Notes under the pieces: model-generated
What the model saw: only the letters and a program-made list of their open reading frames with translations
The model's database searches: none
What the model was told of the DNA's origin: nothing
Origin: Candidatus Woesearchaeota archaeon
Lineage (GTDB): Archaea > Nanobdellota > Nanobdellia > Pacearchaeales > GW2011-AR1
Length of the DNA stretch: 64,000 nucleotides
Reading direction: 5' to 3'
Assembly (NCBI GenBank): GCA_964448605.1
Contig: CAYUZV010000002.1
Span: 39,804-103,803 of the forward strand
Program-made: the position numbers and the translations under genes
In this document: positions 19,690 to 25,400 of the stretch, in pieces
How the letters are laid out: each line of letters opens with the position of its first letter
How positions within the stretch are numbered: position 1 is the stretch's first letter

Positions 19690-20184
19690 TTAATTATAAT
19701 ATTCTTCTTTGAACATTTTTAGTATTAGTATTGAAAATGAGACAAATAGAGGTCCTACGAAAATTCCTATCATTCCGAAAACATATAATCCAATGAACAT
19801 TCCGATTAGAGTTGTGAGTGGATGGATTCTTGATATTTTGTCGCCGAGATAAGGTCTTATTAAATTATCAATGTTGCTTATAATTATTCCTGCAATAAAA
19901 ATGCCTGTTGCTTTCCAATATTCTCCCATTATAATTAAACCAATTGCGAATGGAATCCAGACAAAAGGTGGGCCGATTACAGGCAAGAAAGAGAGTATTG
20001 CAGTGACAAATCCCCATAAGAATGCTCCTTTTATTCCTAATAAGAAAAAAGTTATTGTTAAAAGTCCACCCTGAATTAGTGCAATTATTCCGCTTACAAA
20101 TACAGTGCTATACGAGACATCTTTTAATTTTTTAATGAGAATTTTTGAATTTTTTTTGTTGAAAGAAGGACAACTAGATTGCAC
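19690..20184 (-). CDS. AI-2E/PerM family transporter, C-terminal half only (N-terminally truncated)
   Basis: ILSFLPVIGPPFVWIPFAIGL...NLIRPYLGDKISRIHPLTTLIGMFIGLYVFGMIGIFVGP is the conserved C-terminal half. The family is normally about 340 aa. Confidence 0.6.
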   Translation of the reverse strand: MQSSCPSFNKKNSKILIKKLKDVSYSTVFVSGIIALIQGGLLTITFFLLGIKGAFLWGFVTAILSFLPVIGPPFVWIPFAIGLIIMGEYWKATGIFIAGIIISNIDNLIRPYLGDKISRIHPLTTLIGMFIGLYVFGMIGIFVGPLFVSFSILILKMFKEEYYN

Positions 20185-21121
20185 TCGTAAGTTTTGTAGA
20201 AATTGTTATAATGATAATTTAAAACTAGTTAATTTTAACCATTGCAAAAATATTCAATGTGTAGAATATATTGAAAATGAGAAAGTTGAAGAGATTAGAG
20301 AAGACTTTCTATTAAATGTTATTTCACCAAAAGAAGAAATATTAAATTCTCGTGGAATTTTGTTGAAAATCGAGAGCAATGAGCCGGTAGACTTGAGTTA
20401 TGGGCTTGGGTCTACCGGTAGGTTTAGACGTTTCGCTAGAAATGTTAAAGAGGTAGAAAAAAGAATTAGTTTAAGAGATGGAGAGAATAACTTAATCATA
20501 AAAAGTGTAGACGAAAGAGGAAAAGTTACAACAAAAGAGATGAATCTTTTTGTTGATTCTAAAAAACCTAGAATAAGAAGTTATACACGAGAAAAATTTA
20601 TTAATGAAAAATTTGAAATCAAGGTTAGAGAAGATAATTTAAAAGAAATAAATCTTTTTATTAATAATAAAAAATTTGATGTTTCTTTAGACAACTGTGA
20701 AGAAGATAGAAGTTATTTTATATGTTCTTTTGATATAGACTTAAAAGAATTTGATGGCGAAGAAATAGAATATTATTTTGAAGTAATTGATATTGCTGGA
20801 AATAAAGACGAGAGTAGAGAACTTAAAGCAAAAGTTGATTTAACTCCTCCACAAATTGAGAATATTAATATTTCTTATGAAGAAAGACGAAGCAGGTATA
20901 ATGTAAAACTTAAAATTGATGAAACCAATTTTGATGAAGTAAATTATATTTATAATTATAGAGATAGAGAACGAGAGAGAAGATTTTGTTCTAGGTTAAG
21001 AGATGGAATTTGTGAACGAACTATTTATGAAAAGTATGAAAATATTAAATTAGAAATCAAAGACGAAGCAGGTAATATTTTAATTAAAGAAATAAACTTG
21101 AAAGGGGGTAGCTCAGAATGA
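20105..21121 (+). CDS. repeat-domain protein, paralogue of 59198..60862 but without a signal peptide (start uncertain)
   Basis: RISLRDGENNLIIKSVDERGKVTTKEMNLFVDSKKPRI resembles RLSFRDGEHNLTIFVKDESGNKVSETINFFVDSKEPRI in the 554-aa protein. Confidence 0.5.
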   Translation: MLYETSFNFLMRIFEFFLLKEGQLDCTRKFCRNCYNDNLKLVNFNHCKNIQCVEYIENEKVEEIREDFLLNVISPKEEILNSRGILLKIESNEPVDLSYGLGSTGRFRRFARNVKEVEKRISLRDGENNLIIKSVDERGKVTTKEMNLFVDSKKPRIRSYTREKFINEKFEIKVREDNLKEINLFINNKKFDVSLDNCEEDRSYFICSFDIDLKEFDGEEIEYYFEVIDIAGNKDESRELKAKVDLTPPQIENINISYEERRSRYNVKLKIDETNFDEVNYIYNYRDRERERRFCSRLRDGICERTIYEKYENIKLEIKDEAGNILIKEINLKGGSSE

Positions 21122-21478: not shown

Positions 21479-22444
21479 ATGGAAAATATACAATTAGAAG
21501 GAAGAACATTAGAACCTCATTATGGTAGAAATGTAGACAAAGCTCCGGCTCTTTTAGAAAGATGGGAAAAAGGCGAAGGCTATATTCCTTCTGAAGCAGA
21601 TATAAGACTTTTAGAAGTTAGAAATTTTAAGAATGCTCCGCAGATAGCTAATAATTATTGGGATAGTTCTACATTATCAGCAACAAAAGGTGAAGCTGTA
21701 AAAGTTATTCTGCCTTATGTAACAACTCAAACAGGAGTTCCACAATTAACAGAAGCAGCTAGATTTGGTTTAGCTTTAATTAATCCAAATGAAACTTTAG
21801 TTCACAATGGAGTAAATTTAGATGTTGATGGTAGATGGGAAAAATTAGATGGGGGGGGTGTTTATACTTTACAAAGAGAAGGATTAGTGCTTAATCAAGA
21901 TTTAACAGAAGAACAAGCAATGCAACATCCTTTACTTTTAACAAAACTAGGACACCCAGATTATGTTGATGGAAAATTCGCTCGTTCTAAAGACGAAGTT
22001 GCGGAAATTATAGGAAAAACTTTTGAATTAGGAAAAAGTGAACATGGTTATGGTACTATGATGGGCCAGTATTTGCCTAACGTTAGCGATAAAGCTATTT
22101 TAAATGCGTGGTTTGCCGACTGGCTTGACTGCGGGTCTCGGTCTTACGCTTGGACTGATCTTGACTATGACGTTGGTCGTTTCGCCTTTTATAGCGTCGG
22201 AGACGCTGAGAAAGGTAACGCCGAAGGCGTTGACGCCGATAAAGCAAGAGTTCAGTTAAGAACATTAGAAGGAATGTTAAAGCCAGAACAAGTTGACCAA
22301 ATTGGAGTTGCTTTAGACGAAAGAGATGAGTTAAGACAAAGACTTTTAACAACAGACCAAATCTATGAAGCAGTTCAATCTTATGTTGGTTCAGCTAATG
22401 AATCAGATGTAAGAAAAATTCTTGATGGTCTTACAAAGAGATAA
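21479..22444 (+). CDS. DGR variable (target) protein
   Basis: Contains the VR at codons 210-239 (AWFADWLDCGSRSYAWTDLDYDVGRFAFYS). GC is locally higher. TATA ggtttaaaaa about 25 nt upstream. Confidence 0.75.
   Translation: MENIQLEGRTLEPHYGRNVDKAPALLERWEKGEGYIPSEADIRLLEVRNFKNAPQIANNYWDSSTLSATKGEAVKVILPYVTTQTGVPQLTEAARFGLALINPNETLVHNGVNLDVDGRWEKLDGGGVYTLQREGLVLNQDLTEEQAMQHPLLLTKLGHPDYVDGKFARSKDEVAEIIGKTFELGKSEHGYGTMMGQYLPNVSDKAILNAWFADWLDCGSRSYAWTDLDYDVGRFAFYSVGDAEKGNAEGVDADKARVQLRTLEGMLKPEQVDQIGVALDERDELRQRLLTTDQIYEAVQSYVGSANESDVRKILDGLTKR
22106..22195 (+). repeat. DGR variable repeat (VR)
   Basis: 75 of 90 nt are identical to 22614-22703. All 15 mismatches lie opposite an A in the other copy. 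Confidence 0.85.
22193..22231 (+). promoter_or_regulatory. two short GC hairpins immediately 3' of VR
   Basis: agcgtc-gga-gacgct (22193-22207) and aacgcc-gaa-ggcgtt (22217-22231). Confidence 0.45.
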
Positions 22445-22613
22445 GTTTTTATAATATTCTCATTTAATTTAATTGTCCTAGCTAACCGTTGTTACGATGT
22501 GAGCTAGGTTATACGCTTATTTACTATGGGAGCCTCGCTCTTATAAAATACAGCCGTGACACCTAGCGTGTGAAATGGCAGTGCCAAAATAAGTAAATAA
22601 GCTAACTTAGTCG

Positions 22614-22703
22614 GCGTGGTTAGCCAACAGGCTTGACAACAGGTCTAGGTCTAACGCTAGGACTAATCTTGACAATGACAATGGTCGTTTCGCCTTTAAT
22701 AAC
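22614..22703 (+). repeat. DGR template repeat (TR)
   Basis: 25 adenines, 15 of them substituted in VR. Reads AAC/AAT/AGG-rich in the VR frame. Ends 5 nt before the RT stop codon. Confidence 0.85.
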
Positions 22704-22708
22704 TGGGC

Positions 22709-24142
22709 TCACAAACTAGGACGTTTTTTATTTTTCTTAAATTTTCTTTTAGACTTGATACTTGCCATAACACAATCAATATCATCATAAGAAATAGTGT
22801 CATCTTTTAATTTCTTTTTAATATCTCTTAATCTTTCTTTGTGGCTGTAAATTTTATTTAAGATTTTGTAAATTTTTTCTCTCGGCAAGACTTCCCATAC
22901 TGATAATTGTTTATGCTCTATTAGATTGATTAAATGACTCCAAACAGTTGATTCTTTAATCCCATATTTTGTGGCAATGTCTTTTACGCTGAGACCTTTT
23001 CTGTAATGAAACAAAGTCTTTTGAACGGAATATTGTAATTCGCTTTCATTAACTTTTTTGATGTAATTGATATACTTTCTTTTGTTGTGAATAAATAATT
23101 TATTGCCGTGAGCAAAGAACCTGTTAAAATTTTTAAGCAAATATCTTCGATATTTGTAAGTGTTTGCATGAGAGCAATAAGCCAACCAACCTTCCAAAGC
23201 TTCTAATGATTTTTGTCTTCCAATAATGCCTTCATCAAATAGGATTCTTAAATGATTAAATTTTCTTCCAAAATTTTTGAGATTGCTTTTTCTAATAAGT
23301 TTATGATAATAAAAAACTCTAAAACCTAAAAAGTTTATTCCACTATCTAATCTTAAAACATTTGATTTGCTAGGGTGCAACTCTATTTTTAATTTTTCTT
23401 TTAGGAAATTGTCTATTTTTATTTTCCATTCATCGAGTTGAGCCTTAGACTCATGCAGAATCACAAAATCATCAACATAACGAATATAATATTTTGCTTT
23501 TAATTTATGCTTTACAAATTGGTCTAATTCATTGAGATATAAATTTGCGAAAAATTGGCTAGTCAAATTTCCTAAGGGCATGGCTTTTGATTTATTGTTG
23601 TAAGAAAGTATTGTTTCTATTAACCAAAGAACTCTTTTGTCGTTGACTTTCTTTTTAATTAGGTTTATAAGAATTTGGTGGTCAACTTCTTCAAAATAAT
23701 GTTTTATATCTGCTTTCAGCACAAAACATTTTCTTGTGTTATTTCGAGAAACTTTTCTTTTGAATTTGTCAAATCGTTCTAATGCTTTTAAAGTTCCTTT
23801 GCCGATTTGGTTTGCATGAGAATCATAAATAAATGTTCTTTCGAACATAGGAGAGATAACATCAATTAGGGCGTGATGAACAACTCTATCCTTAAAGATA
23901 GCTTTGCTTATTTTTCGTGTTTTCGGGTCTCTCAAAGTAAATGTTTTCAAGGAATGAGGTTCATAAGTTTGTTTAATAAGTTCTTCGTGCAATCTTTTGA
24001 GATTCTCTCTAAGATTCTTTTGAAAACGTTTTACATATCTTCTCTTTGACTTGCCTTTCTTGGCGTTTTTGAAAGCAAGGAGTAGATTATCAATACTACA
24101 TATTTTAGTAAAAAGGTCGTCTGATTTTTCTTTTGGTTTCAT
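22709..24142 (-). CDS. DGR-type reverse transcriptase with C-terminal HTH extension
   Basis: PLGNLTSQFFANLYLN (the LGxxxSQ motif typical of DGR RTs) and YIRYVDDFVIL. The C-terminal about 110 aa contains LSVKDIATKYGIKESTVWSHLINL. Confidence 0.85.
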   Translation of the reverse strand: MKPKEKSDDLFTKICSIDNLLLAFKNAKKGKSKRRYVKRFQKNLRENLKRLHEELIKQTYEPHSLKTFTLRDPKTRKISKAIFKDRVVHHALIDVISPMFERTFIYDSHANQIGKGTLKALERFDKFKRKVSRNNTRKCFVLKADIKHYFEEVDHQILINLIKKKVNDKRVLWLIETILSYNNKSKAMPLGNLTSQFFANLYLNELDQFVKHKLKAKYYIRYVDDFVILHESKAQLDEWKIKIDNFLKEKLKIELHPSKSNVLRLDSGINFLGFRVFYYHKLIRKSNLKNFGRKFNHLRILFDEGIIGRQKSLEALEGWLAYCSHANTYKYRRYLLKNFNRFFAHGNKLFIHNKRKYINYIKKVNESELQYSVQKTLFHYRKGLSVKDIATKYGIKESTVWSHLINLIEHKQLSVWEVLPREKIYKILNKIYSHKERLRDIKKKLKDDTISYDDIDCVMASIKSKRKFKKNKKRPSL

Positions 24143-24222: not shown

Positions 24223-24537
24223 ATGCGTATGTCACCAAAAGAAAATATGATTTTATCACAGATAAAAGTTGGAAGACAAAGGCGATTAGTCTTTTGCAAT
24301 GTTGATAGCAAACCACTTTTAGTTTCAGAAATTTACAGAAAGGTGAATAAAGAAATAAAAGATAACAGAGAAGGAAAAGAAATAAGATTAAGTGATGTTA
24401 GTAGAGCATTGCAGGACTTAGTGAAACTCGGCGTAGTAAAATGTCTTAATCCTCGAAAAAGAGTCGGAGACAAGGGAATTTTATATCACCTTACCCAAAA
24501 AGGGGAGATACTCAAAAGTTGTTATAAAACACAGTAA
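24223..24537 (+). CDS. winged-helix transcriptional regulator
   Basis: LLVSEIYRKV...IRLSDVSRALQDLVKLGVVKCLN...GILYHLTQKG. Confidence 0.5.
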   Translation: MRMSPKENMILSQIKVGRQRRLVFCNVDSKPLLVSEIYRKVNKEIKDNREGKEIRLSDVSRALQDLVKLGVVKCLNPRKRVGDKGILYHLTQKGEILKSCYKTQ

Positions 24538-24721: not shown

Positions 24722-25002
24722 AAAGGGACGAAGCTTATAGTCAAAGGGACGAAATTTTTAAAAAATGACTCAAGAGGACGAAAGGGACGAAAGGGACATA
24801 GAACATTGAAGAGGACGAAAGGGACGAAACGGACGGGACATTTAAAAAAGCAAAATCTAAATTATCAACAAATTGAAGGTATATCTATAAATAGATAAGG
24901 AGTTAGTAAATTCCTTGTTAGTATTTGGTCCTTTAGGTGCATCACAACCTTTTGTTGTTTTTTAGAATGTTATTTGGCATGTCCCGTTCGTCCCCTTCGT
25001 CC
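24722..25002. repeat. iteron-like GGACGAA array with inverted arms
   Basis: Six GGACGAA cores on the + strand (24722-24841) and two on the - strand (24979-25002). They flank a 137-nt AT-rich spacer. Confidence 0.6.
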
Positions 25003-25110: not shown

Positions 25111-25181
25111 GGGTGATTAGGCTAGTGGCAAACCATCTCGCTTACATCGAGAATTCACCAGTTCGATTCTGGTATCACCCA
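25111..25181 (+). tRNA. tRNA-Val (UAC), copy 1
   Basis: Acceptor GGGTGAT/ATCACCC, anticodon arm TCTCG-CTTACAT-CGAGA, T arm ACCAG-TTCGATT-CTGGT. 71 nt. Confidence 0.8.
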
Positions 25182-25329: not shown

Positions 25330-25400
25330 GGGCGATTAGGCTAGTGGCAAACCATCTCGCTTACATCGAGAATTCACCAGTTCGATTCTGGTATCGCCCA
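25330..25400 (+). tRNA. tRNA-Val (UAC), copy 2
   Basis: Identical to copy 1 except for the acceptor pair 4:69 (C-G instead of T-A). Confidence 0.8.

Follow-up and report, generated by a model that had tools for sequence, protein, structure and literature searches.

A Predicted Diversity-Generating Retroelement in a Woesearchaeotal Genome and Its Association with the Orphan RT-16 RNA Motif

The Locus and Its Repeat Pair

The cassette described here was found on contig CAYUZV010000002.1 of a Candidatus Woesearchaeota archaeon (assembly GCA_964448605.1), within a window of 64,000 nucleotides (nt), which is the whole stretch of DNA that was analysed and to which all coordinates refer. It comprises a gene for a 321-residue protein, hereafter the target, an intergenic interval that holds the structured RNA motif RT-16 and one copy of a 90-nt repeat, and, convergent on the opposite strand, an intact gene for a 477-residue reverse transcriptase (RT) (Table 1). 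The second copy of the repeat lies within the target gene. In the initial annotation this arrangement was interpreted as a diversity-generating retroelement (DGR), with the intergenic copy as template repeat (TR), the genic copy as variable repeat (VR), the RT on the opposite strand and the TR ending 5 nt before the RT stop codon, and both of these positional statements hold. The RT-16 motif between the target gene and the TR was overlooked at that stage, and it is the key to the odd layout.

Table 1. Coordinates of the cassette and of its predicted RNA elements in the 64,000-nt window.
Feature	Position	Strand	Remarks
Target gene, 321 residues	21479..22444	+	open reading frame; residues 1-240 form a predicted C-type-lectin-fold variable domain, residues 251-320 an added helical domain
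VR	22106..22195	+	residues 210-239 of the target; 75/90 identical to the TR
GC hairpin 1 (AGCGTC-GGA-GACGCT)	22193..22207	+	immediately 3' of the VR
GC hairpin 2 (AACGCC-GAA-GGCGTT)	22217..22231	+	3' of the VR; also in related locus L012
TATA-box-like element TTTTATAATATT	22447..22458	+	after the target stop codon; predicted promoter of the TR RNA
C helix, 5' strand GTCCTAG	22475..22481	+	predicted 5' end of the RNA; perfect complement of 22716-22722
RT-16 RNA motif (Rfam RF03019)	22477..22610	+	71.8 bits against a gathering score of 50, full model
T helix, 5' strand GAGCTAGGTTAT	22501..22512	+	candidate primer-strand analogue; 11/12 pairs with 22699-22710
Linker, A22513 C22514	22513..22514	+	2 nt, following the 5' strand of the T helix
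P2 helix, 5' strand GCTTATTTAC	22515..22524	+	in the Rfam consensus, model R1 and the minimum-free-energy fold
P2 helix, 3' strand GTAAATAAGC	22593..22602	+	ends 11 nt before the TR; candidate stop-duplex analogue
TR	22614..22703	+	intergenic, noncoding
T helix, 3' strand ATAACTGGGCTC	22699..22710	+	last 5 nt of the TR plus spacer
RT, 477 residues	22709..24142	-	convergent with the target; intact open reading frame
C helix, 3' strand CTAGGAC	22716..22722	+	inside the last RT codons, on the other strand
T-run TTTTTTATTTTT	22724..22735	+	predicted archaeal terminator of the TR RNA
HTH_40 domain of the RT, C-terminal	22766..23029	-	residues 372-459; Pfam
RVT_1 domain of the RT	23315..23923	-	residues 74-276; Pfam

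The TR and the VR, both on the forward strand and offset by 508 nt, constitute the longest direct repeat of the region in a repeat search. All 15 mismatches between them fall on an A of the TR, which holds 25 adenines among its 90 positions, and the chance of such a distribution is 7e-11; differences at other bases number zero. These counts reproduce exactly the ones originally given, as does the reading frame of the VR in the open reading frame (ORF) of the target, where it reads AWFADWLDCGSRSYAWTDLDYDVGRFAFYS and differs from the TR in 13 codons, with 12 amino-acid changes. The TR was also said to be rich in AAC and AAT codons, and eight of them were counted; 24 of the 25 adenines occupy codon positions 1 and 2, and in none of the TR codons does an A-to-N change give a stop. 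No second VR-like copy of the TR was detected on either strand of the window. The end of the repeat resembles an initiation of mutagenic homing (IMH) site, since an A-free, GC-rich GGTCGTTTCGCCTTT is common to the TR and the VR, and GC inverted repeats, the two hairpins already noted in the initial annotation, are present downstream of the VR only and not of the TR. 

For comparison, 80 loci encoding relatives of the RT were taken from GTDB genomes, giving 81 with the window, and an adenine-biased TR/VR pair was detectable in 53 of the 81. In related loci the hairpins after the VR have different, compensated stems (GCGCC-GGA-GGCGC, GACGCC-GAA-GGCGTC and CCGGC-GAA-GCCGG), and A22702-to-G, with which the VR hairpin begins, is a fixed TR/VR difference that recurs in them. 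A variable copy in a coding gene, a noncoding template, adenines at codon positions 1 and 2, the lack of reachable stops and the wholly A-biased mismatches (15/15) are the hallmarks of a DGR, and the identification of the cassette as such is supported by this bias, by the RT scores and by the predicted fold of the target. The element is a new, otherwise ordinary member of a known group of DPANN DGRs.

The Reverse Transcriptase

The 477-residue ORF contains the motifs LGNLTSQ and YVDDF, as initially reported, and motif 4 of the form [LIV]GxxxSQ is diagnostic of DGR RTs. The best solved relative was 8UB7 (141 bits), a 328-residue 'Reverse transcriptase' represented by nine PDB entries, which we take to be the Bordetella phage enzyme (bRT) of the cryo-EM study considered below, whereas solved group II intron and 'retron-type' RTs gave at most 69 bits. 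Among family models, the phage RT family phrog_1423 reached 381 bits and defence-system RT models no more than 171 bits. Retron RT models scored 58 bits against a threshold of 235, and the best NCBIfam model, the group II intron RT/maturase TIGR04416, scored 151 bits against a cutoff of 300. Motif 4 and the closer kinship with bRT than with intron or retron RTs place the enzyme, as judged from its sequence, in the DGR clade. Its homologues number in the thousands; the 120 closest listed are 55-78% identical to it, the top 90 at least 60%, and all 120 carry both RVT_1 and HTH_40. The named hosts among these listed homologues are metagenome-assembled genomes (MAGs) of Pacearchaeota, of Nanoarchaeota or of an 'archaeon', and the family is abundant in MAGs of Pacearchaeota, Woesearchaeota and Nanoarchaeota. 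An early guess of DPANN kinship is thereby borne out, the homologues of the target coming from the same three groups.

A separate observation concerns the coding sequence of the RT in the related loci. Simple-sequence tracts were found 20-90 nt before the motif 4 codons, always in the same loop, in 33 of 73 related RT genes, in loci spanning L002-L079 (for example L062:4540-4580, L065:4520-4590 and L067:1190-1275). The RT gene of the window has no such tract. The tracts are poly-G (6-12), poly-C (11-12), (GA)n/(AG)n (5-13 repeats) or (CT)n/(TC)n (9-14 repeats); as assembled, 10 are in frame and 23 are frameshifted so that the RT is split into two ORFs, about one in three being expected in frame at random length. 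The pattern looks like slipped-strand phase variation, by which the DGR enzyme would be turned on or off. Misassembled homopolymers could account for part of it, but the long (GA)n tracts that recur at a single site in many MAGs are no artefacts.

The Target Protein

No match to the target sequence was obtained in Pfam, PHROGs or the PDB (phmmer), and no Pfam family, FGE-sulfatase included, reached an E value of 0.1. The initial annotation had suggested structure prediction as a means of looking for a C-type-lectin fold. An AlphaFold model built on 54 homologues (pLDDT 89, pTM 0.73) gave a single significant PDB match in Foldseek, 5IOO (E 6e-8, probability 1.0, TM score on the target 0.67), with only 14% sequence identity; the title of that entry is 'Accommodation of massive sequence variation in Nanoarchaeota by the C-type lectin fold'. 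On the strength of the model, the target would be a C-type-lectin-fold variable protein of a DGR, like the one from Nanoarchaeota. The last VR residue is number 239 of 321, which leaves 82 codons up to the C-terminus, in agreement with the earlier estimate of about 80, and yet the VR closes the lectin domain, because the helical domain of residues 251-320 has been added behind it; this domain is absent in some homologues of the target.

The 110 homologues of the target are all unnamed DPANN proteins, and the differences between them are concentrated at the codons that contain TR adenines. The homologue P0122, which is 90% identical, differs at 6 of 17 TR-A codons against 1 of 13 other VR codons and 9% elsewhere, and in more distant homologues mostly 13-15 of the 17 TR-A codons differ.

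RT-16 and the Related Loci

The 170 nt between the target gene and the TR are accounted for by the RT-16 motif, which lies directly 5' of the TR; it belongs to RF03019, its score exceeding the gathering threshold and an RT gene being adjacent. Nineteen related loci were tested with the Rfam model, and in 18 of them RT-16 ends 1-3 nt before the TR. A further model, R1, built from these matches, found the motif in 65 of the 80 related loci as well as in the window, and an adenine-biased TR followed within 150 nt in 56 of 63 testable loci. Three layouts were distinguished. The one of the window, with target and TR followed by a convergent RT, is represented by 12 cases including the window itself. 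Target, TR and RT follow one another on one strand in most cases, among them all of the short RTs (about 340 residues, lacking HTH_40), and in L003 and L011 the order on one strand is RT, target, TR. RT-16 stands on the TR strand in all three layouts, whatever the orientation of the RT gene, and therefore belongs to the TR rather than to the RT gene.

Weinberg et al. 2017 (PMC5737381) presented RT-1 to RT-19 simply as motifs found close to RT genes; a link with a DGR was made for RT-10 alone, which forms the spacer that separates TR from brt in BPP-1, and the function of RT-16 was left open between retron and DGR. Neither a description of this RNA upstream of the TR nor the term 'RT-16 motif' was found in the literature searched. 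New here are the assignment of the orphan RT-16 to the TR transcript, of which it is the 5' part, and its covarying pairing with the TR end. Compared with the Rfam description of RF03019, the outer part of the P1 hairpin competes in the window with two long-range helices that reach past the TR, and these were invisible to the original analysis of intergenic regions.

As a minor observation, Rfam RT-11 gave a weak, sub-threshold match at 22461-22583 (19 bits), which shares the RT-16 core (AUAAAAU-CAGCC...UGAA-GGCAGUG). Several 'RT' motifs in the Weinberg et al. set may be leader RNAs of DGRs that are related to one another.

The limits of the transcript were predicted from its flanks. When 55 nt upstream of the RT-16 model start were scanned in about 64 loci, 48 TATA-like motifs were found to start 27-30 nt before it, a spacing that matches an archaeal promoter firing at the C-helix strand. 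Beyond the TR there is a conserved box, followed by a T-run in the window and in most related loci. The TR RNA would thus be about 250 nt long, from about 22475 to about 22730, and its last 20 nt overlap the final RT codons on the other strand.

Long-Range Helices around the Template

Two helices are predicted to connect the RT-16 region with the sequence that follows the TR. In the C helix, the first bases of the RNA covary with the conserved box after the TR, as seen in pairs such as GTCCTG/CAGGAC, GTCTTAG/CTAAGAC, GTCTTGGTATTG/TGATACCAAGAC, GTACTAGCATAC/GTATGTTAGTAC and CCCTAGAATC/GATTCTAGGG, with about 38 distinct versions in all. Pairing averaged 5.43 when both strands came from one locus and 2.88 when the loci were mismatched; the observed sum was reached in 0 of 20000 permutations. 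The T helix joins a strand just 3' of the P1 hairpin loop to the end of the TR and the spacer. It occurs in 49 distinct versions (0 of 20000 permutations), examples from relatives being AAACTAGGGCTA/TAGCCCTAGTTT, GGAGATGGACTA/TAGTTTATCTCC, TGTCAAGGCCA/TGGCCTTGACA and GAGGTTAGGCCA/TGGTCTAATCTC. For a formal count of its pairs, the 5' strand was anchored on an invariant A (A22511) and the 3' strand on the AAT nearest to the end of TR/VR homology, neither of which depends on the helix; the alignment retained a few rows with wrong anchors, which is conservative. An unanchored search for the longest helix was too noisy in such AT-rich DNA (own 7.8, cross 6.2, shuffled 5.6), and the anchored tests were used instead.

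Over 54 loci, 77.4% of the T-helix cells were paired as opposed to 62.4% after shuffling (0/500), the covariation score was 0.532 as opposed to 0.272 (0/500), and sliding the partners by 1-3 columns reduced the pairing to 26-47%. Double-sided changes were seen in 12 of 14 pairs. The cleanest pairs lie outside P1, the column pair 13-26 being UA in 34 loci, CG in 19, UG in one and unpaired in none. A22511, A22513 and the AAT at the TR end are invariant in the 54 loci. The edge of the helix coincides with that of the repeat: in about 50 of 56 loci, the first T-helix pair lies so close to the end of the BLAST-detected TR/VR homology that the offset of this end from it is -4 to +3 nt. In the subgroup of the window, position A22698, which adjoins the helix without being part of it, is T, C, G or A depending on the locus, and the paired A22699 never changes. 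An unconstrained minimum-free-energy fold of 22472-22723 (-84.1 kcal/mol, z = -5.0) contained the C helix, a small hairpin, the T helix, P2 and the inner RT-16 stems. Of the Rfam consensus structure, P2 and the inner stems were thus reproduced; across the loci, the outer P1 competes with the C and T helices, with equal pair counts.

Genomic Setting and the Search for an Accessory Gene

The window also encodes GatB, enolase, TruB, RNase J, an archaeal-type Rad50 and six tRNAs, at about 29% GC, and because of these the cassette is considered chromosomal in a DPANN-like archaeon. The absence of an Avd-like gene, remarked on at the outset, was upheld: no Avd-like Pfam match was obtained in the ten ORFs around the cassette (E values up to 0.1-1), and all-against-all clustering of ORFs revealed no cassette-specific small neighbour gene conserved across the 81 loci. 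Besides housekeeping-like neighbours, which judging by their sequences encode ribosomal proteins, SecY, AspRS, IscU and a PIN-like protein, the only recurrent genes were those for the RT and for three target families. The search for Avd covered the neighbouring ORFs, and a divergent Avd elsewhere in the genome is possible. Avd is present in 74% of DGRs and is hence not strictly defining (Wu et al. 2018, PMC5758913). From the gene content we infer independence of Avd.

Proposed Mechanism and Comparison with Known Systems

The data are best explained by a chromosomal DPANN DGR that lacks an accessory gene and in which RT-16 is the 5' counterpart of the BPP-1 spacer RNA, an interpretation that we hold to be probable. 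It would have three parts, namely the VR-bearing lectin-fold target, a separate noncoding RNA of about 250 nt on the same strand, running from the TATA box through RT-16, TR and short spacer to the T-run, and the convergent RT with its HTH_40 domain. The RT would copy the TR RNA and misincorporate opposite adenines, and the cDNA would replace the VR, whose 3' edge the GC hairpins would mark. In the RNA, the strand 22501-22512 would pair with the TR end and the spacer as the T helix, the P2 duplex would follow two nt later, and the C helix (22475-22481 with 22716-22722) would close the whole molecule. Synthesis of the cDNA might then start from the 2'-OH of an invariant adenosine, either A22511 or A22513, where the T-helix strand ends on its 3' side, with A22698 as the first template base and P2 as the point where synthesis ends. 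These priming and stop steps are proposed because of the analogy with BPP-1, where a primer strand is followed by 2 nt and a stop duplex, and with the msr-msd RNA of retrons, and the priming nucleotide is accordingly a putative one. HTH_40 may take over the nucleic-acid-binding role of the missing Avd, a speculative suggestion because the short RTs that lack this domain use the same RNA. The RT gene could stand in any orientation because the RNA would be an autonomous unit. A more specific proposal, which might equally turn out right or wrong, is that the RT-16-type DGR RNA is circularly permuted, with the primer strand and the stop duplex 5' of the TR, and supports Avd-free priming in cis from the 2'-OH of an internal adenosine.

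The comparison with BPP-1 is based on its cryo-EM study, according to which the primer strand Sp47-56 is paired with the TR 3' end, the priming A56 adjoins the first template base, and two nt further on Sp59-70 forms a 'stop' duplex with sequence upstream of the TR, just before which the cDNA ends (bioRxiv 10.1101/2023.10.23.563531). In that study other DGRs, namely only Avd-containing ones plus five archaeal genomes, were scanned over no more than 40 nt upstream and 100 nt downstream of the TR (bioRxiv 10.1101/2023.10.23.563531). The cassette resembles the BPP-1 DGR (mtd-avd-TR-brt) in the adenine-specific transfer from TR to VR, the RT clade, the predicted C-type-lectin-fold target with the VR at the end of the lectin domain and the GC inverted repeat after the VR. 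The RNA is also alike in that a strand pairs with the TR 3' end and is followed, after 2 nt, by a duplex whose partner lies just upstream of the TR. In contrast, no Avd gene was found here, and the structured RNA is 5' of the TR, whereas in BPP-1 it is 3', the DGR RNA of that phage being TR plus spacer (Rfam RT-10). The stop-like P2 is local to RT-16, whereas the BPP-1 stop pairs sequences that flank the TR. Other differences are the additional terminal C helix, the HTH_40 domain of the RT, the convergent RT gene that overlaps the RNA 3' end and the RNA's own apparent archaeal promoter.

Similarities with DPANN and Nanoarchaeota DGRs (the CPR, or candidate phyla radiation, set of PMC5758913, the archaeal members of clade 5 in Roux et al. 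2021, PMC8144416, and 5IOO) comprise the host group, the small cassette and a target that has no domain recognisable from its sequence and yet is predicted to adopt the C-type-lectin fold. According to Wu et al. 2018 (PMC5758913), 90% of their CPR genomes' DGRs show the arrangement TR-(avd)-RT; no avd was found here or in the 80 related loci, and unlike 5IOO the target has the extra C-terminal helical domain.

With the msr-msd RNA of retrons (a1/a2) the RNA shares a structured 5' part, a template in its 3' part and a helix that joins the 5' strand to the region 3' of the template. Retrons prime from the 2'-OH of a conserved purine at the 3' end of the 5' strand, and a conserved purine occupies that position here as well. 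Unlike in a retron, the RT is of the DGR clade, and a gene carries a homologous copy of the template that is diversified at adenines; there is no effector gene and no sign of multicopy single-stranded DNA (msDNA). Neither retron RNA nor group II intron RNA was found in the Rfam scan. Only the topology of the RNA is retron-like, and the cassette is a member of neither class.

Alternative Explanations

Several points weigh against the model set out above, and some of them also favour the strongest rival. According to this rival, the DGR is functional, RT-16 is a mere leader (for stability, processing, RT docking or a switch between P1 and the C/T helices) and not the source of the primer, and the cDNA is primed otherwise, for example by target priming at a nick at the VR hairpins or from the 3' terminus of the RNA itself. 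The C and T helices have 5' strands that are also able to pair with one another, which gives the P1 hairpin of the Rfam consensus, with a comparable number of pairs, and the two strands after the TR can likewise form a hairpin of their own with similar counts. The C/T conformer is therefore possibly one of two mutually exclusive structures, and only the pairs outside P1 (GU:AC and J:TR-end) specifically support it. The T helix has a C·A mismatch in L010 and L012, and the anchored search missed the C helix in 16 of 63 loci, partly through anchoring errors. In the short-RT subgroup, two invariant TR adenines 5' of the T helix are always GG in the VR (L019, L022, L024, L025, L029, L033, L035, L041, L062, L069 and L072), a fixed change that simple random mutagenesis starting at that point does not predict and that is unlike mutagenic copying from there. 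The transcript ends rest on prediction and the priming chemistry on analogy. Moreover, the Avd-free mechanism is assumed solely from the lack of a detectable gene, and bRT needs Avd in vitro.

Nevertheless, a role as a mere leader is countered by the clean covariation of the T-helix pairs outside P1, such as column pair 13-26, and by the agreement, in about 50 of 56 loci, between the edge of this helix and the point where TR/VR homology stops. The succession of strand, 2-nt linker and P2 duplex reproduces the primer and stop geometry of BPP-1. Only about 30 nt follow the TR, all of them engaged in the T and C helices, which leaves no room for a downstream primer strand. The leader explanation is consequently regarded as rather unlikely, and RT-16 as the counterpart of the spacer RNA is preferred.

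It could also be argued that the cassette is a dead relic whose present VR is a frozen variant. A single consensus sequence is at hand, and from one such VR ongoing diversification cannot be read. The identical protein, and hence the same VR, recurs in an independent Logan assembly (SRR7048218), and the RT gene is frameshifted in many related loci. On the other hand, the RT ORF of the window is intact and retains its catalytic motifs, non-adenine differences between TR and VR are lacking, and no damage is seen in any of the RNA elements, in the VR hairpins or in the promoter-like box, all of which agree with the family consensus. A relic is thus held to be improbable, and the DGR is presumed to be active at present.

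The possibility that the cassette is not a DGR and that a chance or duplication repeat stands beside a retron, group II intron or defence RT is practically negligible, and these readings were rejected: the best NCBIfam model is admittedly a group II intron RT/maturase, far below its cutoff, and some sources call the homologues 'retron-type reverse transcriptase', but the adenine bias is too improbable by chance, the TR/VR logic recurs among the related loci, bRT is by far the nearest solved RT, the phage family outscores the defence RTs widely and neither type of RNA was found by Rfam.

Significance

What is known of the mechanism of DGRs comes almost wholly from a single phage, whose system depends on Avd and on a spacer RNA located downstream of the template, and the very many DGRs of DPANN and CPR genomes are little understood in this respect. 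Should RT-16 prove to be the priming and positioning element, an orphan structured RNA would gain a function, and a minimal, Avd-free DGR of two components, the RT and an RNA of about 250 nt, would become testable in vitro and attractive for the engineering of targeted mutagenesis. The same geometry of template, primer and stop would then arise from a permuted RNA, which would link DGR priming to a retron-like architecture and explain the free orientation of the RT gene.

Other Features of the Window

Some further features of the window were noted beside the cassette. Just past it, two tRNA-Val(TAC) genes (25111-25181 and 25330-25400) are 97% identical and 219 nt apart. A cluster of GGGACGAA(A) repeats at 24722-24838 has an inverted copy about 150 nt away (24974-24998), with an AT-rich stretch in between, and adjoins a 104-residue winged-helix-like ORF (24223-24537); the repeats could be iterons or an origin-like element. 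On the other side of the cassette, the ORF at 19690-20184 on the reverse strand resembles the AI-2E transporter family in no more than the C-terminal half of the profile (positions 171-323 of its 327). It overlaps the start of the ORF at 20105-21121, and it may be a truncated gene or reflect a mis-set start. Between 25506 and 28189, a 58-residue Cys-rich ORF (..CVTGCSDCVSCDG..) is followed by genes for a radical SAM/SPASM enzyme, a TehB-type methyltransferase and a DUF3419 protein, a gene set in a DPANN genome that resembles those for ribosomally synthesized and post-translationally modified peptides (RiPPs).

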